Shown piece by piece: positions 2,578-46,921 of a stretch of DNA of 64,000 nt. The DNA is taken from NCBI RefSeq assembly GCF_003790525.1, contig NZ_CP033635.1; one strand, written 5' to 3'. Position numbers and translations under genes: made by a program. The stretch comes from Escherichia coli (lineage in GTDB: Bacteria > Pseudomonadota > Gammaproteobacteria > Enterobacterales > Enterobacteriaceae). The notes beneath the pieces were generated by a model that was not told where the DNA came from, searched no databases, and was given only the letters and a program-made list of their open reading frames with translations. Position 1 is the first letter of the stretch. Each line of letters begins with the position of its first letter.

Positions 2578-4623
<2,046 letters not shown>

Positions 4624-4766
4624 TTATGTGGTCGGATGAGTTCTAATTTAGCCGTCGCCGGAGAAAAGGGAAAAGGGGAGTGCGGGGTTTGTGATGGGAT
4701 TCAAAAAGAATACGCCCGTTCGTCATGCCGGACGGCGGTAATACAGTCGTCCGGCATCGGGAAAAA

Positions 4767-14713
<9,947 letters not shown>

Positions 14714-28561: not shown

Positions 28562-29650
28562 TGGATTTGCCCCTATATTTCCAGACACCTGTTATCACTT
28601 AACCCATTACTGGCCCGCTGCCGTAGATATTCCCGTGGCGAGCGATAACCCAGTGCACTATGCGGATGCCATTCGTTATAATGCTCGAACGCCTCTGCAA
28701 GGTTCTTTGCTGCCGTTAACCCGTCTGGTTTGGGCATGATACTGATGTAATCACGCTTTATCGTTTTCACGAAGCTCTCTGCTATGCCGTTACTCTCCGG
28801 ACTCCGCACCGCCGTGTTCTTCGGTTCAAGTCCCAGCATCCGGGCGAACTGGCGTGTTTCATTAGCCCGGTAGCATGAACCATTATCCGTCAGCCACTCC
28901 ACTGGAGATGTCGGAAGCTCGCTGCCGAAGCGGCGTTCCACCGCTCCCAGCATGACGTCCTGTACTGTTTCACTGTCGAAGCCGCCCGTAGTGACCGCCC
29001 AGTGCAGTGCCTCACGGTCACAGCAGTCCAGCGCGAACGTGACCCCCAGTTTTTCTCCGTTATCACAGCGGAACTCGAACCCGTCAGAGCACCATCGTTG
29101 ATTGCTTTCTTTCACGGCCACTTTGCCAGTATGTGCCCGTTTCGATGGCGGTACAGCGGTTTTTCGCTCAAGCAACAGCGCATTCTGGCGCATGATCCGG
29201 TAAACACGTTTGGCATTGATAGCAGGCATACCATCAAGTTCGGCCTGTCTGCGAAGCAGCGCCCATACCCGACGATAACCATACGTGGGCAGCTCTCCGA
29301 TAACATGGTGTATACGGAGAAGCACATCCGTATCATCTGAGTGACGGCTGCGGCGACCATCTTTCCAGTCATCGGTTCGTCTGAGAATGACGTGCAACTG
29401 CGCACGCGACACCCGGAGACAACGGCTGACTAAGCTTACTCCCCATCCCCGGGCAACAAGGGAGACCGTCATTCCCGGTTCAAAGCTCTGCTGAACAATA
29501 GCGATCTTTTCCTGTGTAGTACGCCGTCTGCGTTTCTCCGGCCCTAAGACATCAATCATCTGTTCTCCAATGACTAGTCTAGAAACTAGTATTAAGACTA
29601 TCACTTATTTAAGTGATATTGATTGTCTGGAGATTCAGGGGGCCAGTCTA
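28562..29650 (-). mobile_element. IS2 copy with a ~242-bp internal deletion (1089 bp against ~1331 bp expected)
   Basis: IS2 terminal sequences at both ends (tggatttgcccctatatttccagaca at 28562; complement of tagactggccccctgaatctccagacaa ending at 29650). Confidence 0.75.
28573..29559 (-). CDS. IS2 transposase, in-frame InsC(N-terminal 37 aa)-InsD fusion created by the internal deletion
   Basis: [37 protein letters not shown] (InsC HTH start) runs directly into [20 protein letters not shown]... (InsD) through to ...NRCLEI; DDE region intact. Confidence 0.7.
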
Positions 29651-29984
29651 TATATCAATTAATCATTAGTTTAAAAGCTTGTTCAACTGCATACATCATT
29701 AGCGTTTAAGCCAGTGAACAGGAAGTTTACTGGCTTAATTACAGTAATATAGTGTATCGCTATGCTCACTGAGTCTTAGATCTCCACCGTCGGTCTAATA
29801 TTCGCACTCCTGCTAACAACCGGTAATCAAATCGTCCTCCGGTATTGAAAGTTAATACACAAATCAGGATGATGGAGGCTCATACTGGTACAGCGCGACC
29901 ACTTATGCAGGCGTCTCTGTCAGGTTTGTTGCCCGGATCACCCGCATCAGGGACAGGGCTGTTCAGTTATCCGCAGGAGAAAAT

Positions 29985-30995
29985 ATGTCACTCAAGGCTA
30001 TCGCCGCCGAACTCGGGATCTCTGTCACCACAGTCAGCCGGGCGCTTGGCGGATTTTCGGACGTTTCCGCTTCGACCCGTGCACGTGTAGAAGCGGAAGC
30101 TCGGCGTCGTGGTTATCGCCCGAATACCCTGGCAAGACGTCTCAAAACCGGTAAAACCGATGCGGTCGGCCTGGTCTTCCCTGAACATGCTGTACTGTTC
30201 AGCAGTAGTGTGTTTGTGGATATGGTCAGTTGTATCAGCCGGGAACTGGTCCGCCATGATATTGACTTACTGCTGATAGCCGATGATGAACGGGCTGACA
30301 GCCACAGCTATATGCGTCTGGTCGAAAGCCGCCGGGTTGATGCCCTTATCGTGGCGCACACGATGGATAATGACCCGCGTCTTACACACCTGCAGGAGGC
30401 CGGTATTCCGTTTCTGGCACTCGGTCAGGTGCCGTCCGGTCTTCCCTGTGCCTGGTTTGACTTTGATAACCATGCAGGAACCTGGCAGGCCACACAGCAC
30501 CTGATTGCCCTGGGCCATCAGCGAATTGCCCTGCTGAGTGAGGACAACTCCCGTGCCTATGTCACTGCACGACGTCAGGGATGGCGCGATGCCCTGAGTG
30601 AACATGGTCTGCCTGAGACCTGGCTACGCCGGGTCTCTCCCACCCGACGCTCAGGTTTCCAGGCAGTGACTGAGTTAATGTCACTTCCGCTTCCCCCGAC
30701 GGCCATTATTACCGACAGTGACCTGATCGGTGATGGCGCGGCCATGTCGCTGCAGTTATCCGGTCATCTGTCCGGAGAGGATGCCGTCTCTCTTGTGGTT
30801 TATGATGGTCTGCCGCAGGACAGTATTATTGAACAGGATGTGGCTGCAGTTCTTCAGTCAACACGACATCGCGTCGGTCGTCAGATTGCCGACATGATAC
30901 GCCAGCTGGTCACGAATGTTTCACCTGAAATGCTACAAGTACTCTGGCAGCCGGAATTTCATCCTGGCAAGACAACGCTTGCTCCCTCCGCCTGA
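29985..30995 (+). CDS. rafR: LacI-family repressor, RafR-like
   Basis: 336-aa ORF; N-terminal HTH MSLKAIAAELGISVTTVSRAL; immediately upstream of the alpha-galactosidase gene. Confidence 0.65.
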   Translation: MSLKAIAAELGISVTTVSRALGGFSDVSASTRARVEAEARRRGYRPNTLARRLKTGKTDAVGLVFPEHAVLFSSSVFVDMVSCISRELVRHDIDLLLIADDERADSHSYMRLVESRRVDALIVAHTMDNDPRLTHLQEAGIPFLALGQVPSGLPCAWFDFDNHAGTWQATQHLIALGHQRIALLSEDNSRAYVTARRQGWRDALSEHGLPETWLRRVSPTRRSGFQAVTELMSLPLPPTAIITDSDLIGDGAAMSLQLSGHLSGEDAVSLVVYDGLPQDSIIEQDVAAVLQSTRHRVGRQIADMIRQLVTNVSPEMLQVLWQPEFHPGKTTLAPSA

Positions 30996-31088
30996 TTTTT
31001 AATCCCGCTCACAAATTCGAATCGTTTCGGTTGCTATCCGAAACGATTCGGATCAACAGTAAGGCATACCCGAAAACGGAGATGTCTT

Positions 31089-33215
31089 ATGGAACCGATG
31101 TACCGCAGGCTGACCAGTCCCCACTCAGACCTGATTATTAAAACCCACCCGTATGCAGAGATTGTCTGGTGGGGATCCACCCTGAAACACTTTTCACCGG
31201 ATGACTGTATCAGCCTGGAAAGGCCGGTTGCGAATGGTCGTCTGGATACCGACACCCCACTGACGCTGATGGCCGAAAACGGCGCGGGACTTTTTGGCTC
31301 GCCGGGGCTGGAGGGACACCGCAACGGGCTGGATGCGTCCCCTGTGTTCCGTACCATCAGCGTGGTACAGGCCGGAGAATCACTCACCCTGACCAGTGAG
31401 GATGCAGTGGCGGGTCTGCGCATGGTCAGTGAACTGGTGCTGACATCGTCCGGTGTGCTGAAGATGCGTCATGCCCTGACGAACCTCCGTGAAGGGGACT
31501 GGCAGGTGAACCGCTTCGCCATCACGCTCCCTGTGGCTGAAAGGGCAGAGGAAGTCATGGCCTTCCACGGACGCTGGACTCGTGAGTTTCAGCCGCACAG
31601 GGTCCGTCTCACACATGACGGTTTTGTGCTGGAGAACCGCCGGGGCCGCACGTCCCATGAGCATTTTCCGGCACTGATTGCCGGTGCCCCCGGTTTCTCA
31701 GAACAGCAGGGCGAGGTGTGGGCCGTACATCTGGGCTGGAGTGGCAACCATCGCATGAAATGTGAGGTCAAAACTGACGGACGGCGTTACCTCCAGGCGG
31801 AAGCACTGTGGATGCCCGGAGAAAAAGCCCTGAAGAAGGATGAGACCGTGTACACGCCGTGGCTGTACGCCAGCTATTCCCCGGAGGGGCTCAATGGTAT
31901 GAGTCAGCAGTACCACCGTTTTCTGCGCGATGAAATCATCCGTTTTCCTGAGCAGAAACCCCGTCCGGTGCACCTCAATACCTGGGAAGGTATTTATTTT
32001 GACCACGACCCGAACTACATCATGCAGATGGCCGGACGTGCGGCAGCGCTTGGCGTTGAACGTTTCATTATCGACGACGGCTGGTTTAAGGGACGCAATG
32101 ATGACCATGCGGCTCTGGGCGACTGGTATCTGGATGAACAGAAGTATCCGGACGGACTGATGCCGGTGATTAACCATGTGAAATCACTCGGCATGGAGTT
32201 CGGTATCTGGGTGGAACCGGAAATGATTAACCCGGACTCTGACCTCTTTCGCCGCCATCCTGACTGGGTACTGTCAATGCCGGGGTACACACAACCAACC
32301 GGGAGACATCAGTATGTTCTCAACCTGAACATTCCTGAGGCCTTTGCTTACATTTATGAACGCTGTTTATGGCTGCTGGGCGAACACCCAGTTGACTATG
32401 TGAAATGGGACATGAACCGCGAGCTGGTCCAGGCCGGGCATGAAGGTCGGGCGGCGGCGGACGCGCAGACCCGTCAGTTTTACCGGCTGCTGGATCTCCT
32501 GCGCGAACGTTTTCCCCGTGTTGAGTTTGAGTCCTGCGCTTCCGGCGGTGGACGTATCGACTTTGAGGTTCTGACCCGCACGCACCGCTTCTGGGCTTCT
32601 GACAACAATGACGCCCTGGAGCGCTGCACCATACAGCGTGGCATGAGTTACTTTTTCCCGCCGGAGGTTATGGGGGCACACATCGGTCATCATCGCTGCC
32701 ATGCCACCTTCCGGCAGCACAGCATTGCCTTTCGCGGTCTGACGGCCCTGTTCGGTCATATGGGACTGGAGCTGGATCCGGTAACGGCCGGAGAAGAGGA
32801 ATCCGCCGGTTACCGCCGCTATGCCTCGCTCTACAAAGAATGGCGGCAGCTTATCCACACGGGCACCCTATGGCGGGTGGATATGCCGGATGCGGCGACA
32901 CAGGTGCAGGGGGTGGTCAGCCCGGATCAGTCGCAGGCGCTCTTCCTGGTGAGCCAGCTTGCCATGCCGGATCACACCCTGCCGGGTGCTCTACGTTTTC
33001 CGGGGCTGGCACCACAGGCCCGTTACCGGCTTCGTGTTGTTGACCATCCGGATATTCAGCTGGTCGGTGAAGGCGGGCATACCATGCGCAGGCTGCCCGG
33101 CTGGATGAACCAGACCTCCGACATCAGTGGGGAATGGCTGGCGCAGGCCGGTATTCAGCTTCCCGTACTGGATCCGGAAAGCGCCATGCTGATTGCCCTT
33201 GAACGTTTGGCATAA
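31089..33215 (+). CDS. rafA: Alpha-galactosidase RafA (GH36)
   Basis: 708-aa ORF; GH36 motifs (DDGWF, KWDMN, CASGGGR). Confidence 0.8.
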   Translation: MEPMYRRLTSPHSDLIIKTHPYAEIVWWGSTLKHFSPDDCISLERPVANGRLDTDTPLTLMAENGAGLFGSPGLEGHRNGLDASPVFRTISVVQAGESLTLTSEDAVAGLRMVSELVLTSSGVLKMRHALTNLREGDWQVNRFAITLPVAERAEEVMAFHGRWTREFQPHRVRLTHDGFVLENRRGRTSHEHFPALIAGAPGFSEQQGEVWAVHLGWSGNHRMKCEVKTDGRRYLQAEALWMPGEKALKKDETVYTPWLYASYSPEGLNGMSQQYHRFLRDEIIRFPEQKPRPVHLNTWEGIYFDHDPNYIMQMAGRAAALGVERFIIDDGWFKGRNDDHAALGDWYLDEQKYPDGLMPVINHVKSLGMEFGIWVEPEMINPDSDLFRRHPDWVLSMPGYTQPTGRHQYVLNLNIPEAFAYIYERCLWLLGEHPVDYVKWDMNRELVQAGHEGRAAADAQTRQFYRLLDLLRERFPRVEFESCASGGGRIDFEVLTRTHRFWASDNNDALERCTIQRGMSYFFPPEVMGAHIGHHRCHATFRQHSIAFRGLTALFGHMGLELDPVTAGEEESAGYRRYASLYKEWRQLIHTGTLWRVDMPDAATQVQGVVSPDQSQALFLVSQLAMPDHTLPGALRFPGLAPQARYRLRVVDHPDIQLVGEGGHTMRRLPGWMNQTSDISGEWLAQAGIQLPVLDPESAMLIALERLA

Positions 33216-33269
33216 AAGGACCGGAGCCGGTCACGGCTCCCTGCACTCAGTCCCGTGAGGATAACAATA

Positions 33270-34547
33270 ATGAATACTGTCAGTACTCATAAAAACCCCG
33301 ATTTCTGGATATTTGGTCTGTTCTTTTTTCTCTACTTTTTCATCATGGCAACCTGTTTCCCGTTTCTGCCCGTCTGGCTGTCAGACATTGTGGGGCTGAG
33401 TAAAACGGATACCGGGATTGTTTTTTCATGCCTCTCCCTGTTTGCCATCAGCTTCCAGCCGCTGCTGGGGGTCATCTCAGACCGTCTTGGCCTGAAAAAA
33501 CACCTGATGTGGATCATCAGCCTGCTGCTGGTCCTGTTTGCACCGTTCTTTCTGTACGTTTTTGCGCCGCTGCTGCGGTTCAACATCTGGGCCGGAGCAC
33601 TGAGCGGCGGGATTTTTATCGGCTTCGTTTTTTCTGCGGGAGCCGGTGCCATCGAAGCCTATATTGAACGTGTCAGCCGCAGCAGCGGATTTGAATACGG
33701 TAAGGCCCGGATGTTCGGCTGTCTGGGCTGGGCGCTGTGTGCCACCACGGCAGGGCTGCTTTTCAACGTGGATCCGTCCCTGGTATTCTGGATGGGGTCC
33801 GGCTGCGCATTGCTGCTGGTCCTTCTGGTGGCGCTGGCGCGTCCCGGAACCAGTCAGACAGCGATGGTCATGAATGCGCTGGGTGCCAACTCGCCCGTGA
33901 TTTCCGCCGGAATGGTGTTCAGTCTGTTTCGTATGCGTCAGATGTGGATGTTCGTGCTTTACATGATTGGGGTGGCCTGCGTCTATGACGTGTTTGACCA
34001 GCAGTTTGCCACGTTCTTCCGTGCATTTTTTGACACGCCGCAGGCGGGGATCCGGGCATTTGGTTTTGCCACCACGGCTGGCGAGATTTGCAATGCCATC
34101 ATCATGTTCTGCTCCCCCTGGATAATCAACCGCATTGGTGCCAAAAACACACTGCTTGTCGCGGGTCTGATTATGACCATCCGCATCACAGGGTCGGCCT
34201 TTGCCACCACGGCTACTGAAGTGGTGATCCTGAAAATGCTGCATGCCCTTGAAGTCCCATTCCTGCTGGTTGGTGCGTTCAAGTATATCACCGGCGTGTT
34301 TGATACCCGGCTGTCGGCCACCATTTATCTGATTGGCTTTCAGTTCTCCAAACAACTGGCGGCGATATTCCTCTCAACCTTTGCAGGTCACCTGTATGAC
34401 CGCATGGGGTTCCAGAACACCTATCTGGTTCTGGGCGGTATTGTCCTTGCGGTCACCGTGTTATCGGCTTTCACCCTGAGCAGTACCCGTAAAACGGCTG
34501 CCCCGTCAGCAGAAACCGCTACAGCACAGACGGAGGTTCGCTTATGA
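33270..34547 (+). CDS. rafB: Raffinose/oligosaccharide:H+ symporter RafB (LacY family, MFS)
   Basis: Track ORF from 33255 (GTG); ATG at 33270 with GAGGA RBS; 12-TM hydrophobic profile; LacY-like N-terminus (NPDFWIFGLFFFLYFFIM). Confidence 0.8.
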   Translation: MNTVSTHKNPDFWIFGLFFFLYFFIMATCFPFLPVWLSDIVGLSKTDTGIVFSCLSLFAISFQPLLGVISDRLGLKKHLMWIISLLLVLFAPFFLYVFAPLLRFNIWAGALSGGIFIGFVFSAGAGAIEAYIERVSRSSGFEYGKARMFGCLGWALCATTAGLLFNVDPSLVFWMGSGCALLLVLLVALARPGTSQTAMVMNALGANSPVISAGMVFSLFRMRQMWMFVLYMIGVACVYDVFDQQFATFFRAFFDTPQAGIRAFGFATTAGEICNAIIMFCSPWIINRIGAKNTLLVAGLIMTIRITGSAFATTATEVVILKMLHALEVPFLLVGAFKYITGVFDTRLSATIYLIGFQFSKQLAAIFLSTFAGHLYDRMGFQNTYLVLGGIVLAVTVLSAFTLSSTRKTAAPSAETATAQTEVRL

Positions 34548-35974
34548 AACAGCGTCTTGTCTCTGCACAGGTTGCACTTGATACACTCCGCGCCCGTCGT
34601 GGTGATACCTGGTACCCGGTTTTTCATCTGGCTCCACCTGCCGGATGGATGAATGATCCGAACGGGCTTATTTATTTCAGCGGTCGCTATCACGCATTCT
34701 TTCAGCACCATCCGGCAAGTGAACATCAGGGGCCGATGCACTGGGGACATGCCACCAGTCCGGACATGCTGCACTGGCAGCATGAGCCGGTTGCGCTGGC
34801 ACCCGGTGATGAATATGACCGGGATGGCTGTTTTTCCGGCAGCGCAGTGGACGACAACGGCGTGCTGTCGCTTATCTACACCGGTCATCTCTGTCTGGAG
34901 GATCGGGGGGATGACAGCATCATCCGCGAAGTCCAGTGTCTGGCAACCAGCCGTGACGGCATTCACTTTGAGAAACAGGGCTGCGTGCTGACGCCACCGG
35001 AAGGCATCATGCATTTCCGTGACCCGAAGGTCTGGCGGGAAGGGGGATACTGGTGGATGGTTATCGGCGCGCGGGATACCTCTGACACCGGTCAGGTGCT
35101 GCTGTATCGCGGCACATCCCTGCGGGACTGGCGCCAGGAACGGGTTCTAGCGCAGTCGGCAGCCGGAGAAAGCTATATGTGGGAATGTCCGGACTTTTTC
35201 CGCTGTGGCGACCATCACTGGCTGATGTTCTCCCCGCAGGGGATGACGCCCGGCGGATACCGGTTCCGCAACCGCTTTCAGAGCGGAGTTTTACCGGGTC
35301 ACTGGCAGCCGGGGGCCGCCTTTGCCCTGAGCGGGGCATTTGAAGAACTGGATCACGGTCATGATTTTTATGCCCCGCAGTCCCTGGTCGCGGAGGACGG
35401 ACGGCGCATCATCATGGCCTGGATGAATATGTGGGACTCCCCGATGCCTACAAAGCGTGAGGCCTGGGCCGGATGTCTGACCCTGCCGAGGGAACTTTTT
35501 GAACGCCATGGTCGTCTGTGTCAGCGTCCGGTTCGCGAAGCCGAATCCCTTCGCGGGACGTGCCAGCCGTTACACCCTGTAAGGCTCAGTGGCACGCAGT
35601 TGCTGGCTGAGGACGCACAGGCCGTGGAACTGGTGCTGACGTGGCATACCCTCGACAGTCAGGCAGAGCATTACGGCATCCACCTGGGAGACGGGCTCCG
35701 GCTGTATGTGGATAACCAGGCAGGACGGCTGGTGCTTTGGCGTCACTACCCGGATGAGGGGCTGGACGGTTACCGCAGTATCGCGCTGCCTGGCGCAGAA
35801 TATCTGACGCTACGGGTTTTCCTGGACCGTTCATCGGTGGAAGTGTTCGTTAACGATGGCGATGCCACCCTGTCCAGCCGTATTTACCCGCAGCCCGGAA
35901 CCCGCCGGTTGTCGCTATATGCAGCTCACGGCGAGGCTGTGCTGACGGACGGCTCACTGTGGACGCTGGCCTGA
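34544..35974 (+). CDS. rafD: GH32 sucrose/raffinose hydrolase (invertase), RafD-like
   Basis: 476-aa ORF; GH32 N-terminal WMNDPNG motif plus RDP and EC motifs; 4-bp overlap with rafB stop. Confidence 0.75.
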   Translation: MKQRLVSAQVALDTLRARRGDTWYPVFHLAPPAGWMNDPNGLIYFSGRYHAFFQHHPASEHQGPMHWGHATSPDMLHWQHEPVALAPGDEYDRDGCFSGSAVDDNGVLSLIYTGHLCLEDRGDDSIIREVQCLATSRDGIHFEKQGCVLTPPEGIMHFRDPKVWREGGYWWMVIGARDTSDTGQVLLYRGTSLRDWRQERVLAQSAAGESYMWECPDFFRCGDHHWLMFSPQGMTPGGYRFRNRFQSGVLPGHWQPGAAFALSGAFEELDHGHDFYAPQSLVAEDGRRIIMAWMNMWDSPMPTKREAWAGCLTLPRELFERHGRLCQRPVREAESLRGTCQPLHPVRLSGTQLLAEDAQAVELVLTWHTLDSQAEHYGIHLGDGLRLYVDNQAGRLVLWRHYPDEGLDGYRSIALPGAEYLTLRVFLDRSSVEVFVNDGDATLSSRIYPQPGTRRLSLYAAHGEAVLTDGSLWTLA

Positions 35975-36037
35975 AATAATTCCACTGCCGTCGGTGACGG
36001 CAGTACTTTCGGTTCACCCGTAATGAAGGAAAGCACA

Positions 36038-36553
36038 ATGGGATTACTGGGCAGGATTAAACAACTGATAAGTGAAAATGAGAAACCGGCGGAAGTCACC
36101 CGCGTGATGGCACCGCTGTCCGGTGAAATTGTCCCTCTGGACACGGTTCCGGATGCTGTGTTTGCCGGGAAAATAGTGGGGGATGGTATTGCTATCCGTC
36201 CTTCCGGCGGCGATACCTTGATGGCTCCTGTCAGCGGCACTATCGGTAAAATACTGGAGACAAACCACGCGTTTTCCATCCGCACCGACAGTGGCACTGA
36301 ACTGTTCGTGCACTTCGGTATTAACACAGTTGACCTCAGGGGAGAGGGTTTCCGGCGTATTGCCCAGGAAGGCCAGCTGATCAGCACCGGTGACCCCGTC
36401 ATCGGGTTTGACCTTGCGTTACTTCAGCAGAAAGCACAGTCCACGCTGACACCGGTGATTGTGGCGGACTCTGACCGTGTCCAGGAGATAACCCTGTTCT
36501 CCGGCCCGGTCATCGCCGGAGAAACACCGGTTTTTGATATCAGCAGCCAGTAA
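36038..36553 (+). CDS. PTS EIIA-Glc (Crr)-like protein, island-encoded paralogue
   Basis: Track ORF 36023..36553; from MGLLGRIKQL the sequence parallels Crr (GDGIAIRPSGG, HAFSIRTDSGTELFVHFGINTV with the two His positions). Confidence 0.7.
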   Translation: MGLLGRIKQLISENEKPAEVTRVMAPLSGEIVPLDTVPDAVFAGKIVGDGIAIRPSGGDTLMAPVSGTIGKILETNHAFSIRTDSGTELFVHFGINTVDLRGEGFRRIAQEGQLISTGDPVIGFDLALLQQKAQSTLTPVIVADSDRVQEITLFSGPVIAGETPVFDISSQ

Positions 36554-36558
36554 GCGCC

Positions 36559-37135
36559 ATGAGTGACAATATCGCCAGCGGGCAGCTGGTATCAGGGAAA
36601 GCCGCACATCTGGCCTGGTGCGGGCTGGTAGCCCTGCATCTGGCCCGCCGGGATGGCCGGATTGCGTCAAAAATCCAGGAAAACCTGTTTCTAAACCGCT
36701 GGCGGAGCACAGCACTGAAACAGCACCGTTTTCCCCGCACATATCAGAGCCCTGCAGAGTGAAAGCGGGGCGAAAGATATCCGCAGCAGGCTGGAGTATC
36801 TGTGGCAGGCCTGCTCTGGTGATGTGTCGGTACAGACTGACCTGTTCCGCCTGACATTCGCCCTGGAAACCATCAGGGAGCAGGGCTGGTGCTGGCGGAT
36901 ACTGAGCGACCGGAAATGGGAGGGGCGTAATGTCGTGGTTCCGAACGGGGATGCCGGCAGCTTTTATCTTTCCCGCTCACGTCTTGAGGCGGCATTTGAT
37001 TATCAGGGGAGGTTGCTGCATCCCCTGACCGGCGATGTGTCTGCCCTCGCTGCCCTGCTCCGGAATGCGGGTTGGTATCCAATTCCAGCCGGAACCACGG
37101 ATATGGCGATGTTTGAGCTGTCTGTCATCCGCTGA
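36559..37135 (+). pseudogene. Possible frameshifted gene remnant of unknown function
   Basis: Three successive overlapping + strand ORFs in three frames (36559..36762, 36618..36854, 36824..37135) in a GC-rich stretch between the crr-like gene and the fructokinase gene. Confidence 0.2.
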
Positions 37136-37164
37136 ATATGACTGATGAAAATCATGGAGTATGA

Positions 37165-38091
37165 ATGAGTACAGTAAAAGTATGGGGTCTCGGTGATGCC
37201 GTGGTGGATTTATTACCGGAGAAGCCGGGCACGCTGTTGCAGTGCCCTGGTGGTGCGCCTGCCAATGTTGCCGTGGGCGTGGCCCGACTGGGGGGCCTGA
37301 GCGGGTTTGTCGGGTGTGTGGGGGATGACCCTTTCGGGCGTTTTATGCGCAAAACCCTGGCTGATGAGGGTGTGGACACGGCGTATATGCATACCGACCC
37401 TCTGTACCGGACTTCCACAGTGGTGGTGTCGCTGGTGCCGGGTGGTGAACGAACCTTCACATTTATGGTGCGCCCTTCGGCAGACCTTTTCCTTACCCCT
37501 GATGATTTACCGCCCTTTCGTGCCGGTGAATGGCTGCATACCTGCTCCAATGCCCTGAGTGCAGAGCCCTGCCGCAGCGCCACGTTTCAGGCCATGGAGA
37601 ACATCCGGCAGGCTGGCGGCAGGGTCAGCTTTGACCCCAACATCCGGACTGACCTGTGGCAGAGCACATCGCAACTGCGTGAGTGTCTGCACCGGGCGCT
37701 CATGCTGGCGGATGTGGCAAAGGTATCGGAAGAGGAACTGTTCTTTATCAGCGGTGAACAGGATGTCCGGAAGGGAACCGATGTTCTGGCATCACATTAT
37801 CCCCTGGCACTGCTGCTGGTAACCCAAGGAAAGGATGGCGTGATGGCTCGCTGGCAGGGAAAAAACCTGTACTTCCCGGCAACACCGGTGGTGAGTGTGG
37901 ACACGACCGGTGCCGGTGACGCCTTCGTGGCAGGTCTGCTGGCAGCGCTGGCGGCAGAGGGGATGCCCTCCGGTGAGCAGGCACTCGCATCCGTCATCGA
38001 ACAGGCCCAGCGCTGTGGTGCGCTTGCCACGACAGCAAAAGGTGCCATGACAGCGTTACCCCGTCGCCAGGATTTACTGAAACACCCCTGA
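37165..38091 (+). CDS. scrK: Fructokinase (PfkB family), ScrK/CscK-like
   Basis: 308-aa ORF; PfkB signatures (GGAPANVAV; DTTGAGDAF). Confidence 0.8.
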   Translation: MSTVKVWGLGDAVVDLLPEKPGTLLQCPGGAPANVAVGVARLGGLSGFVGCVGDDPFGRFMRKTLADEGVDTAYMHTDPLYRTSTVVVSLVPGGERTFTFMVRPSADLFLTPDDLPPFRAGEWLHTCSNALSAEPCRSATFQAMENIRQAGGRVSFDPNIRTDLWQSTSQLRECLHRALMLADVAKVSEEELFFISGEQDVRKGTDVLASHYPLALLLVTQGKDGVMARWQGKNLYFPATPVVSVDTTGAGDAFVAGLLAALAAEGMPSGEQALASVIEQAQRCGALATTAKGAMTALPRRQDLLKHP

Positions 38092-38139
38092 CCGTTTCCT
38101 GCCCGTAACCGTTGTGCACGTCATTTTTGTTGCGGGTGA

Positions 38140-39687
<1,548 letters not shown>

Positions 39688-39692
39688 ACACT

Positions 39693-39718
39693 AACGCTCC
39701 CGGTGTACCGGGAGCGTT
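39693..39718 (+). terminator. Hairpin immediately after the porin gene
   Basis: aacgctcccgg-tgta-ccgggagcgtt stem-loop 6 nt after the stop; no clear T-run. Confidence 0.4.
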
Positions 39719-39923
39719 GCCGGTCATTGTCCCGTAAATGAAAGCGTTGTTCATCAATAGGAATTTAAACCCCAAAAAGATTAAAAAAACACCTGAAAAA
39801 GGGCGCTTTCTCAGCATCGTCACACATGCCATAACTTCGACGTCATCAATTAAATGGACTTCATTGATTGATACCGGGTATCGTGACGGGAGCCTGTTTA
39901 GGATTCTGTGTAAATGCCTTTTC

Positions 39924-40703
39924 TCAGAAGTGACCGTCCAGGCGGTCACCGAACTCGATAATAAAGCGGCTCATTGCCATTCGCCAGTCCTTCAACGGCA
40001 TCGTCCATTTCTGGGACGCAGACTGGATTGCCAGCCACACCACTTTTTTCACCGAGTCGTCTGTCGGGAACACTTTACGCTTTTTGATCGCATGGCGGAT
40101 CACGCTGTTTAGCGACTCGATGGCATTCGTCGTATAGATCACTTTGCGGATGTCCGTTGGATAAGCGAAGAACGTGGCAAGATTCGGCCAGTTAGCCTGC
40201 CAGCTTCGGCTTATCTGAGGATAGCGACTGTCCCAGGCCGCAGCGAACGCTTCCAGTGCCTGCTGACCTGCCTCTTCCGTGGGAGCTTGATAAATCGCTT
40301 TCAGGTCGCGAGTGACGGCCTTGTAGTCCTTCCATGACACGAAGCGCAGGCTGTTGCGCACCATATGCACGATGCATAACTGGATGCGGGCCTTCGGATA
40401 TACTGTGTTGATGGCATCCGGGAAGCCTTTCAGGCCATCCACACAGGCGATGAGGATATCGTTCAGACCGCGGTTTTTCAGTTCAGTCAGCACATTGAGC
40501 CAGAACTTCGCCCCTTCATTTTCGGCCAGCCACATACCCAGCAGTTCCTTCTGACCTTCGATATTGATGCCCAGTGCCAGGAACACCGATTTGTTGATGA
40601 CGCGACTGTCCTGCCGAACTTTCAGGACGATACAGTCAAGATAAACAATGGGGTAAACAGCATCCAGTGGTCTGTTTTGCCATTCTACAACCTGCTCCAT
40701 CAC
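39924..40703 (-). pseudogene. IS256-family (mutator-type) transposase, C-terminal ~260 aa only; N-terminus removed by the IS3-family insertion
   Basis: ORF translation shows the IS256-family DDE region (...CVDGLKGFPDAI..., ...YTTNAIESLN...); reading frame runs into the IS3-family left end at ~40717. Confidence 0.55.
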
Positions 40704-40716
40704 GGCATCGGTGACC

Positions 40717-41511
40717 TGAGCCGCCCCGGGAATCCTGGAGACTAAACTCCCTGAGAAAGAGGTAAACAGAATGACTAAAAATACTCGTTTTTCCCCCGAA
40801 GTCCGTCAGAGGGCGATTCGTATGGTTCTGGAAAGTCAGGGCGAATATGACTCACAGTGGGCGGCAATTTGTTCCATTGCCCCAAAGATTGGCTGTACAC
40901 CGGAGACTCTGCGTGTCTGGGTGCGCCAGCATGAGCGGGATACCGGAGGCGGTGATGGCGGGCTCACCACCGCTGAACGTCAGCGTCTGAAAGAGCTGGA
41001 ACGTGAAAATCGTGAACTGCGCCGCAGTAACGATATCCTTCGCCAGGCTTCCGCTTATTTTGCGAAGGTGGAGTTCGACCGCCTCTGGAAAAAGTGATGC
41101 CACTGCTGGATAAGCTGCGTAAGCTGTACGGGGTCGGACCGGTATGCAGTGAACTACATATTGCCCCGTCAACGTATTACCACTGTCAGCAACAGCGACA
41201 TCATCCTGATAAACGCAGTGCCCGTGCGCAGCGCGATGACTGGCTGAAGAAAGAGATACTGCGCGTATACGATGGGAATCATCAGGTATACGGTGTGCGT
41301 AAAGTCTGGCGTCAGTTGTTACGGGAAGGAATCAGGGTAGCCAGATGTACAGTGGCGCGCCTCATGGCGGTTATGGGACTTGCCGGTGTTCTCCGGGGTA
41401 AAAAGGTCCGCACTACCGTCAGCCGGAAAGCCGTTGCCGCAGGCGACCGCGTAAACCGTCAGTTTGTGGCAGAACGTCCTGACCAGTTGTGGGTGGCTGA
41501 TTTTACTTACG
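40717..41511 (+). mobile_element. IS3-family element (IS629/IS1203-like) 5' part: left IR, orfA and orfB N-terminal section, ending at the group II intron
   Basis: Left end tgagccgccccgggaatcctggagac; orfA 40771..41097 ([26 protein letters not shown]...), orfB from 41094 reading ...QLWVADFTY up to 41511. Confidence 0.65.
40771..41097 (+). CDS. IS3-family transposase OrfA (HTH/leucine-zipper subunit)
   Basis: 108-aa ORF; conserved IS3-family orfA; 4-bp overlap with the orfB start. Confidence 0.75.
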
Positions 41512-44269
<2,758 letters not shown>

Positions 44270-44497
44270 TCTTAAATGACTCTGAGGTGTCTGTTAAACC
44301 TGTGGCGATTCAGTCTATTAAACCTGTGGCGATTCACTTTATGGTGTCATAAACTTAAATCTAGCGCCGGGTAGAACAAGTTAATCGAACGATGTAGCGG
44401 CCATTTAGGCGTTACAGAAAGAACAGAATTTTAAATTTATAGTGAAGCCGTTGCAGCAACTTTGTGGGGTGCAACCAACACTGAACAGGAAAAGAAA

Positions 44498-46921
44498 ATG
44501 GATCATAGTGTACATAACAAGCTCATCTCATTTATTTGGAACATTGCCGACGACTGTTTACGTGATGTGTACGTTCGCGGTAAGTACCGCGATGTGATTT
44601 TACCTATGGTGGTATTACGACGTTTAGATACGTTACTTGAACCCACCAAAGAAGCCGTGCTTGAAGAGGTCAAGTTCCAAAAAGAAGAGATGCAAGCCAC
44701 GGAGCTTGATGATGAACCATTGAAGGCGGCTAGTGGTTATGTTTTTTACAATACATCTAAATGGACCCTGAAATCCCTGTTCAACACCGCAACGAATAAC
44801 CAACAGATATTACTCGCCAACTTTGAAGAGTACCTGCTTGGCTTTAGCGATAATGTTAAAGAAATCATTGAATGCTTTAACCTCAAGTCGCAAATTCGTC
44901 ACATGGCCTCAAAGCAAGTCCTTCTTGATGTCGTCGAAAAGTTTGTTTCCCCTTACATCAACTTAACTCATGAAACGATCGAAGACCCAGATGGCAACAA
45001 GATGCCAGCCCTTACTAACCTGGGTATGGGGTACGTGTTCGAAGAGTTGATCCGTAAGTTCAACGAGGAGAATAACGAAGAAGCCGGTGAGCACTTTACA
45101 CCTAGGGAAGTGATTGAGCTGATGACACACTTGGTTTTTGACCCAGTGAAAGAGCAGCTACCATTGACCATGACCGTTTACGACCCTGCGTGTGGTAGCG
45201 GTGGTATGCTCACTGAATCTCAAAACTTCATTGAAGAGAAATACCCGAACGACAGCCGAGATATTTACCTTTACGGCAAAGAGATCAATGACGAGACCTA
45301 CGCGATTTGTAAATCGGACATGATGATCAAAGGTAACAACCCTGAGAACATCAAGGTAGGCTCAACCTTGTCTACCGACGAGTTTGCGGCTTCTCGCTTT
45401 GACTTTATGTTGTCTAACCCGCCATACGGTAAGAGTTGGGCGTCTGAACAGAAGCATATTAAAGACGGTAGTGACGTGATTGACCCACGTTTTAAGGTTA
45501 GCCTGAAAGACTATTGGGGAAATCTCGAAGTGGTGGATGCCACGCCACGTTCAAGTGATGGCCAGCTGCTCTTTTTAATGGAAATGGTCAACAAGATGAA
45601 AGATCCGAGCGTAAGCCCATTAGGCAGCCGGATTGCTTCTGTTCATAACGGCTCATCGCTCTTTACCGGTGATGCGGGCGGTGGCGAAAGTAACATTCGT
45701 CGCTTCATCATTGAAAACGACATGCTAGATGCCATCGTTCAGTTACCAAATAACCTGTTCTACAACACCGGCATTACCACTTACATTTGGGTGTTGAACA
45801 ACAATAAACCTGAGGCACGTAAAGGTAAGGTGCAACTGATTGATGCCAGCTTGCTATACCGTAAGTTGCGTAAGAACTTAGGTAACAAAAACTGCGAATT
45901 TGCGCCTGAGCACATCACGGAAATCACCGATACTTACCTCGCGTGTGTGGACGTTGAAAGAGCACTTGATGCAAACAATGATCCTATCGGTATCGCCAGT
46001 AAGGTCTTTAGTAATGACGACTTTGGCTACTACAAAGTCACTATCGAGCGCCCAGATCGCCGCAAAGCCAAGTTTACTCAAGATGCCATAGCCCCACTGC
46101 GTTTTGATAAGCAACTTAGTGAAGTGATGGAGTACGTGTACGCAGAGCACGGCGAACGTGTTTACGAAAAAACTGGCTACGGGTCAGATCAGAAAAAGAG
46201 CTTCTTAAAATCCATCGAGAAAGACATTCTTTCTTGGTGTGAAGATAACGACATCAGTCTCAATGCTAAGGCTAAGGCCAAACTGCTTGATGTGAAACAC
46301 TGGCTGGCGCTAAAAGCATTGCTTGAAACTGCACAAACGCTGATGGCTGACATCGGTAGCATTGAATTTGATGACTTCAATAGCTTTAAAACCCAAGTTG
46401 ATAAATCGCTAAAAGCCCATGCTATTAAGCTTTCAGCACCTGAGAAAAATGCCATTCTTCACGCGGTGAGCTGGTATGACGAAACCGCCAAGAAAGTGGT
46501 TAAAAAGGTAGTTAAATTAACGGGTGATAAATTAAACGACCTGCTGGAGCGCTATGAGTGTGAAGTCGCTGACTTGCCAGATTTTGGTTATTACCCCGTT
46601 CCTTCAGCAGAAGGCGGTAAAAAAGGCGAGTATATCACTTACGAGACCAATTCAGACCTGCGAGATACAGAATCTGTTCCATTAAAGCAAAGCATTTACC
46701 AGTACTTCCTAGATGAAGTGAAGCCTCATGTCGATGAAGCATGGATAAACCTAGATACGGTAAAAATTGGCTATGAAATCAGCTTCAATAAGTATTTCTA
46801 CCGTCATAAACCGCTGCGTAGTTTAGAAGAGGTCGCAACCGACATCATCAACCTAGAACAAAAAGCCGAAGGTTTGATTGCGCAGATTCTTGGTGCGGAA
46901 GTAAAAAAGGTTCAGGGGTAA
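44498..46921 (+). CDS. hsdM: Type I restriction-modification system methyltransferase subunit HsdM (long form, ~807 aa)
   Basis: Track ORF from 44462 (TTG); ATG at 44498 with AGGAAAAG RBS; N6-adenine MTase motifs DPACGSGGML and NPPYG; ~300-aa C-terminal extension. Confidence 0.85.
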   Translation: MDHSVHNKLISFIWNIADDCLRDVYVRGKYRDVILPMVVLRRLDTLLEPTKEAVLEEVKFQKEEMQATELDDEPLKAASGYVFYNTSKWTLKSLFNTATNNQQILLANFEEYLLGFSDNVKEIIECFNLKSQIRHMASKQVLLDVVEKFVSPYINLTHETIEDPDGNKMPALTNLGMGYVFEELIRKFNEENNEEAGEHFTPREVIELMTHLVFDPVKEQLPLTMTVYDPACGSGGMLTESQNFIEEKYPNDSRDIYLYGKEINDETYAICKSDMMIKGNNPENIKVGSTLSTDEFAASRFDFMLSNPPYGKSWASEQKHIKDGSDVIDPRFKVSLKDYWGNLEVVDATPRSSDGQLLFLMEMVNKMKDPSVSPLGSRIASVHNGSSLFTGDAGGGESNIRRFIIENDMLDAIVQLPNNLFYNTGITTYIWVLNNNKPEARKGKVQLIDASLLYRKLRKNLGNKNCEFAPEHITEITDTYLACVDVERALDANNDPIGIASKVFSNDDFGYYKVTIERPDRRKAKFTQDAIAPLRFDKQLSEVMEYVYAEHGERVYEKTGYGSDQKKSFLKSIEKDILSWCEDNDISLNAKAKAKLLDVKHWLALKALLETAQTLMADIGSIEFDDFNSFKTQVDKSLKAHAIKLSAPEKNAILHAVSWYDETAKKVVKKVVKLTGDKLNDLLERYECEVADLPDFGYYPVPSAEGGKKGEYITYETNSDLRDTESVPLKQSIYQYFLDEVKPHVDEAWINLDTVKIGYEISFNKYFYRHKPLRSLEEVATDIINLEQKAEGLIAQILGAEVKKVQG

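Follow-up and report, generated by a model that had tools for sequence, protein, structure and literature searches.

Among the known systems closest to the locus is the raf cluster (rafR-rafA-rafB-rafD ... rafY) of the E. coli raffinose plasmid pRSD2, described by Ulmke et al. in 1997 (cited through PMC12987596). In the latter, a single study, rafY was associated with E. coli from chickens, for which soy-based feed is a raffinose-rich diet, and complete rafABD was present in only 23 of 45 rafY-positive isolates (PMC12987596). Here, we analysed a window of 64,000 nucleotides of Escherichia coli DNA (contig NZ_CP033635.1 of RefSeq assembly GCF_003790525.1), that is, E. coli chromosome with ebgA, ygjG and aer on one side, bearing a genomic island. 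The window shares with the raf cluster a LacI-type regulator, an alpha-galactosidase, a LacY-like permease and a GH32 invertase, and it resembles the cluster further in a LamB-like porin about 2.2 kb downstream of the invertase, in the flanking of the island by IS elements and in the existence of both plasmid and chromosomal copies. Over positions 28562-44269, the window is an almost exact match to the raffinose island of strain 2452. There, the gene order runs from an IS3 transposase through the regulator, the alpha-galactosidase, the permease and the invertase to crr, two coding sequences named 'DUF2913 family protein', a kinase, the carbohydrate porin and, behind it, IS1414, IS3 and a group II intron. 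The 2.2 kb between invertase and porin are a poorly described part of the raf island and hold, in the window, a crr-like gene, a relic of a DUF2913 gene and a fructokinase. In the window, each of the seven sugar genes that surround the relic is intact.

The second system with which the locus has to be compared is the DUF2913 family itself (PF11140; also phrog_15786). Its members are proteins of roughly 200 residues that are annotated without a function and occur intact on Enterobacterales plasmids and integrative elements. The matching PHROG family, phrog_15786, likewise has no assigned function, our searches matched DUF2913 to neither a defence system nor an NCBIfam model, the similarity of its fold to solved structures and viral models did not go beyond generic helical bundles, and the literature on DUF2913 consists of incidental mentions. 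Intact members, such as WP_004152389.1 of the K. pneumoniae plasmid pBIC-1a and the Erwinia billingiae protein P0007, are colinear with the window copy over profile positions 7-56 and 75-183. Compared with its nearest intact relatives, to which it is 44-49% identical, the window copy is broken by a net loss of 23 nt and a 12-nt gap. The setting differs as well: whereas the window copy lies inside a sugar-utilisation operon, other DUF2913 genes sit on plasmid or ICE backbones, with repA, relaxase, TraG, resolvase and Rpn/YhgA-like genes as neighbours. The genes directly upstream are heterogeneous there (Rpn/YhgA-like at 9 of 34 loci, PLD at 3, PIN at 2 and ProQ at 1), and of the 80 DUF2913 loci that we inspected in species-representative genomes of other species, not one had a gene for crr, fructokinase, GH32 or a LamB-like porin at a distance of up to 5 kb. 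In this family, whose members are otherwise enterobacterial in our data, we also encountered DUF2913 genes of enterobacterial type, 78-81% identical to the homologue P0003 in contigs assigned to Streptomyces morookaense and Chryseobacterium sp., which are probably contaminating plasmid contigs in those assemblies.

On its 5' side, the relic is bounded by an intact crr-like PTS EIIA-Glc gene (36023-36553, plus strand; RefSeq start 36038), which matches Pfam PTS_EIIA_1 at E = 1.9e-42 and the NCBIfam equivalog PRK09439 with 235.7 bits at a cut-off of 212. On its 3' side follows an intact PfkB-family fructokinase (37165-38091, plus strand; Pfam PfkB, E = 2.6e-58; NCBIfam fructokinase equivalog, 477 bits at a cut-off of 450). 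These Pfam and NCBIfam matches bear out the flanks that had been assigned from the letters alone. Three open reading frames of the plus strand overlap between the two genes, each in a different frame. The first, in frame A (positions equal to 1 modulo 3), spans 36559-36762, encodes 67 residues and ends in a TGA at 36760-36762; its ATG lies 5 nt past the crr-like stop codon. The middle one, in frame B (0 modulo 3), spans 36618-36854 with 78 residues, and the third, in frame C (2 modulo 3), begins with GTG and spans 36824-37135 with 103 residues. Successive frames overlap by 145 nt (first and middle) and 31 nt (middle and third), and the GC content is 0.59-0.595 throughout. The three overlapping frames in about 600 bp of GC-rich DNA that the sequence-only reading had described, and had taken to suggest a gene decayed by two frameshifts, are thus present.

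Is such a three-frame pattern in itself a sign of a broken gene? When 36500-37200 was shuffled 2000 times with dinucleotides preserved, open reading frames of at least 60 codons turned up in all three plus-strand frames in 126 cases (6%). In the seven intact neighbouring genes (8.8 kb in total), we counted ten alternative-frame ORFs of at least 60 residues on the same strand, six of them of at least 78, which amounts to about one per kb. By itself, the pattern is only marginally beyond chance, and we count the feature as real because two of its three frames match DUF2913. This match was obtained with a custom HMM built from 40 intact DUF2913 homologues and scored on every stop-to-stop stretch in all six frames. 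Frame A (36538-36759) scores 80.3 bits (E = 5.7e-27) over profile positions 7-56; for frame C (36719-37132), the score is 117.2 bits (E = 2.8e-38) over profile positions 75-183, with the match itself at 36773-37087. The two matches are colinear along the profile, and no other frame of either strand scores above zero bits. With the intact Klebsiella protein WP_004152389 as tblastn query, the frame of the first ORF shows 68% identity over 47 residues and that of the third 45% over 110 residues. Against Pfam PF11140, neither single piece reaches the gathering score of 23: the first ORF obtains 21.1 bits, just below it, and the C-terminal piece alone gives no match. The joined translation of frames A and C passes with 33.4 bits.

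On the plus strand we therefore distinguish an N-terminal DUF2913 fragment in frame A at 36559-36762 and a C-terminal fragment in frame C at 36773-37135, each supported by the custom HMM, by tblastn and by RefSeq (WP_001313182.1 and WP_001313183.1, respectively). Both ends of the DUF2913 copy are complete and the damage is internal. The frameshift-tolerant translated search that had been proposed from the letters alone hence supports the idea of a decayed gene and gives it an identity: the homology spans two frames, and neither of the ORFs is a conserved intact small gene. The accompanying suggestion, that the remnant derives from a transporter or regulator of the sugar cluster, did not survive. 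DUF2913 is the only family match, no transporter or transcription-factor family is matched in any frame (Pfam, NCBIfam), and neither the surroundings of the other DUF2913 loci nor the related sugar clusters described below connect DUF2913 with sugar genes. The DUF2913 label as such is already public: RefSeq names both pieces 'DUF2913 family protein', but as two genes and not as one pseudogene. Across hundreds of genomes, RefSeq/PGAP carries the halves as separate protein-coding genes and flags neither a pseudogene nor a frameshift. Its C-terminal call covers 36824-37135 only and leaves out the conserved LEYLW motif at 36791-36805, although frame C is open from 36719.

The break is located at 36742-36772 (plus strand), where 31 nt stand in place of the 54 nt of the family (profile positions 57-74). 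The frame A match stops at 36741, the frame C match begins at 36773, and the 31 nt in between show no recognisable DUF2913 homology in any frame. In all 40 homologues, the distance from the FxR to the YLW motif is exactly 33 codons (99 nt), ungapped; here it is 76 nt (36730-36805). Through this net loss of 23 nt, 18 family positions are gone and the homologous frame continues in +1, so that translation from the ATG at 36559 halts at the stop at 36760-36762. The lost positions correspond to residues 53-70 of the homologue P0003 and lie within a predicted helix spanning residues 51-71 (AlphaFold model, pLDDT 87.5). With them went the invariant D56 and the near-invariant W59, L60 and G64, the latter being three of the eight near-invariant residues that are altered. 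A second lesion, an in-frame gap of four codons (12 nt) between HPL and TGD, lies at 37027/37028 on the plus strand: both the frameshift-aware and the HMM alignment read 'PL----TG' there, where the family alignment of 40 homologues is ungapped, and the gap falls within a predicted strand (155-160) of the structure model. Were the 23 nt restored, the gene would have about 199 codons. The family norm is one uninterrupted ORF of about 195-215 codons, and the window offers homology over two frames instead. Based on the split of the homology over two frames together with the stop at 36760-36762, we regard the copy as a pseudogene derived from DUF2913 and not as a functional member.

The sequence-only reading had gone further and proposed two separate frame-changing mutations, with the ancestral coding running from frame A through B to C. 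Homology, as described, is found in only two frames. Frame B (36567-36851) scores -3.7 bits against the custom HMM, and the middle ORF has no Pfam match; its only homologues among 5.8 billion protein clusters are ORFs called as genes at this very E. coli locus. The passage in question is short. Frameshift-aware alignment to two of three homologues prefers about 12 codons in frame B at 36738-36773 ('HISEPCRVKAGR' against 'DIEWLLKQGR'), for a profile gain of 3.9-6.5 bits, while alignment to the remaining homologue gives a single shift. The best reconstruction through all three frames obtains 162.7 bits compared with 156.2 bits for a direct passage from A to C, and the DNA alignment with the Erwinia homologue can be read as a loss of 25 nt followed by a gain of 2 nt at GCAGCAG. 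However, the gain of 3.9 bits, obtained with the shorter construct, was equalled by 15 of 100 shuffles of 36742-36790, and the placement of the gaps differs among the DNA alignments to four homologues. The net loss fits a single -23, a pair of -11 and -12, or -25 together with +2 about equally well. We therefore consider two frame changes possible and the less likely account of the lesion. Since no intact close relative was found (the best is 49% identical), the exact mutational events are not reconstructable.

In any of these readings, the ancestral coding within the 78-codon middle ORF, which overlaps both DUF2913 fragments, amounts to at most about a dozen codons (about 36 of 237 nt), so that even with two frameshifts the ORF itself remains a chance ORF. 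It is most likely an alternative-frame ORF of GC-rich DNA and not a piece of a gene. In our reading it is a by-product of GC-rich sequence, its frame never having been coding or having been so for at most about a dozen codons.

Several explanations would leave the locus without a pseudogene. A sequencing or assembly artefact in the homopolymer T4C4 (36729-36736) could have split an intact gene, as deletion of one C would join frames A and C, and one error-ridden public assembly, the source of protein P0001, has precisely that reading. The fused reading would still be 8 codons short in the region of invariant length. Moreover, the same sequence occurs in about 226 independent complete E. coli genomes as full-length, identical or near-identical copies, and on nine plasmids of E. 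coli and Salmonella, eight of them near-identical and one a diverged Salmonella plasmid. A sequence common to so many independent assemblies is not a sequencing error, and we regard the artefact as refuted, with practically no probability left to it. P0001 and P0038, which had come up as candidate proteins bridging both frames, were rejected, their source assemblies being error-ridden. Over 10.1 kb, the copy on the diverged Salmonella plasmid shows 81 substitutions and not one indel, and the same lesion is present.

If the sequence is genuine, its two halves might still act, alone or together, as the 67-residue and 103-residue products of a split gene. RefSeq calls both pieces as genes, 23 of the 24 invariant DUF2913 residues survive (and 13 of the 21 near-invariant ones), and the 5 nt between the crr stop and the first ORF would permit coupled translation. 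The high conservation outside the lesion indeed counts against the pseudogene reading, in the sense of a residual role of the pieces, and the comparison of the C-terminal piece with the Salmonella copy, with 3 synonymous and 1 non-synonymous changes, hints at constraint in counts far too small to test. Yet none of the other DUF2913 members found is split at such a place, both called products are without the whole conserved helix and the LEYLW motif, no Shine-Dalgarno-like sequence precedes the GTG at 36824, and natural deletions of the region, described below, are accompanied by no loss of other raf genes. We consider a working split gene improbable. Programmed +1 ribosomal frameshifting, for instance at GAG-TGA (36757-36762), would be a way to a full-length protein, and a one-base skip at this TGA would join frame A to frame C. 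However, the junction offers no slippery codon; judged by prfB-type +1 sites, GAG is unable to re-pair in the +1 frame. Within 36730-36790 there is neither a slippery heptamer nor a CUU-UGA site like that of prfB, the recoded product would still miss 18 conserved positions, and no DUF2913 family member found requires recoding, which leaves this route highly improbable. Equally improbable, and refuted as the main explanation, are chance ORFs in a non-coding spacer that carries a promoter or RNA element for the downstream fructokinase-porin genes. The ORF pattern alone, found in 6% of shuffles, is not significant and would fit such a spacer; the DUF2913 homology at E values of 1e-27 and 1e-38 would not. 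Promoter-like sites were absent within 35900-38300, and the sole Rfam match, chrB-b RNA at 36989-37026 on the minus strand, is taken as chance (20.6 bits compared with a gathering score of 36.5; E = 0.28).

With high confidence, we thus interpret 36559-37135 as a DUF2913-family pseudogene, complete at its ends and broken inside, that is a passenger between intact genes of the raf island. From the sequence, we infer that neither fragment product would be functional. That so many invariant residues are kept suggests a break that is fairly recent relative to the divergence of the gene from its relatives.

How might such a gene have come to lie in a sugar cluster? We carried out the comparison with homologous clusters that had been suggested in advance and found no DUF2913, in any frame, in three sister clusters, those of E. 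albertii pEA8_2, Klebsiella michiganensis and Citrobacter braakii. Their permease, invertase, crr-like and kinase genes show 66-77% DNA identity to the window. On pEA8_2, the invertase is directly followed by the kinase with neither crr nor DUF2913 in between. In K. michiganensis and C. braakii, the GH32 gene is followed by a crr-like gene, with an invertase-crr-like spacer of 65 nt and 63 nt, respectively, compared with 63 nt in the window. Homology between pEA8_2 and the window ends at 35978 and resumes at 37119, two points that are 42 nt apart on the plasmid and 1140 nt apart in the window. The right-hand junction at 37119-37164 (plus strand) holds the last DUF2913 codons and the stop, and from its first position onward the window is homologous to the fructokinase leader of pEA8_2. 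This leader, including a GGAG ribosome-binding site, is conserved with positions 5001-5047 of the pEA8_2 locus. In pEA8_2 itself, the intergenic spacer between invertase and kinase measures 93 nt, and a different hairpin with a run of T follows the invertase stop.

In the window, a GC-rich hairpin with a stem of 9-10 bp, a loop of 3 nt and a weak T tail lies at 35984-36004, 10 nt past the invertase stop, and has a terminator-like score on both strands. This hairpin is a candidate for the end of the rafABD transcript or for the boundary with the crr module.

We infer from these comparisons that the DUF2913 gene arrived with plasmid or other mobile-element DNA when an invertase-crr and a fructokinase-porin module were joined, and decayed afterwards. 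The net loss of 23 nt at 36742-36772 has removed most of the helix and left the remainder in the +1 frame, and the relic is now a 0.6-kb passenger between the two modules. The raffinose island is thereby shown to be a mosaic, with its modules joined across the relic of a mobile-element gene. One may also imagine that the crr-like EIIA-Glc paralogue and DUF2913 once formed a functional pair in the donor of the island, with DUF2913 as partner or modulator of EIIA-type regulators, or that the fragments still form a split protein. The tight spacing of 5 nt suggests the former pairing, which finds no support beyond this adjacency in one lineage, and we hold this idea to be very doubtful.

Natural variants of the island bear directly on the role of the relic. 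In one widespread deletion variant, contained in 53 blocks of the sequence collection, 36212-36953 is gone and every other raf gene is intact. The deletion fuses the first 57 crr codons to the last 58 codons of the relic, with an alignment overlap of 8 nt (loci L015 and L016). Some sources name the 115-residue product of this deletion allele 'PTS glucose transporter subunit IIA'. In E. coli YJ4, everything from 36750 onward is lost, with the breakpoint at 36749/36750 inside the relic. In place of the remainder of the relic, the fructokinase and the porin, this strain has an IS3 remnant and a group II intron. That natural deletions leave other raf genes intact makes the relic appear dispensable, and for the same reason a contribution of the relic to the chicken-associated raffinose trait is unlikely.

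The overall significance is small; the feature is an ordinary pseudogene of a known family of domain-of-unknown-function proteins. Its practical consequence is a correction of the annotation, in which WP_001313182.1 and WP_001313183.1 become two halves of one inactivated DUF2913 gene.

The intact neighbour of the relic may merit a look of its own. The crr-like gene is an extra intact copy of EIIA-Glc within a non-PTS raffinose cluster, and even its nearest relatives share only about 58-66% identity with it. Inducer exclusion of LacY-type permeases is exerted by EIIA-Glc, and this cluster-borne paralogue lies beside a LacY-like raffinose permease.

Beyond the relic, the raf island is decaying at different places in different strains. 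The alpha-galactosidase gene, an intact ORF of 708 codons in the window (31089-33215), carries an internal stop in strain 2452 (positions 3273-5399 of that locus). Past the porin, the window continues at 39700-46900 with IS1414 and IS3 remnants and a group II intron reverse transcriptase, followed by a type I restriction-modification system and an Ag43-type autotransporter, and the flanks of the island vary among strains that share the raf segment.
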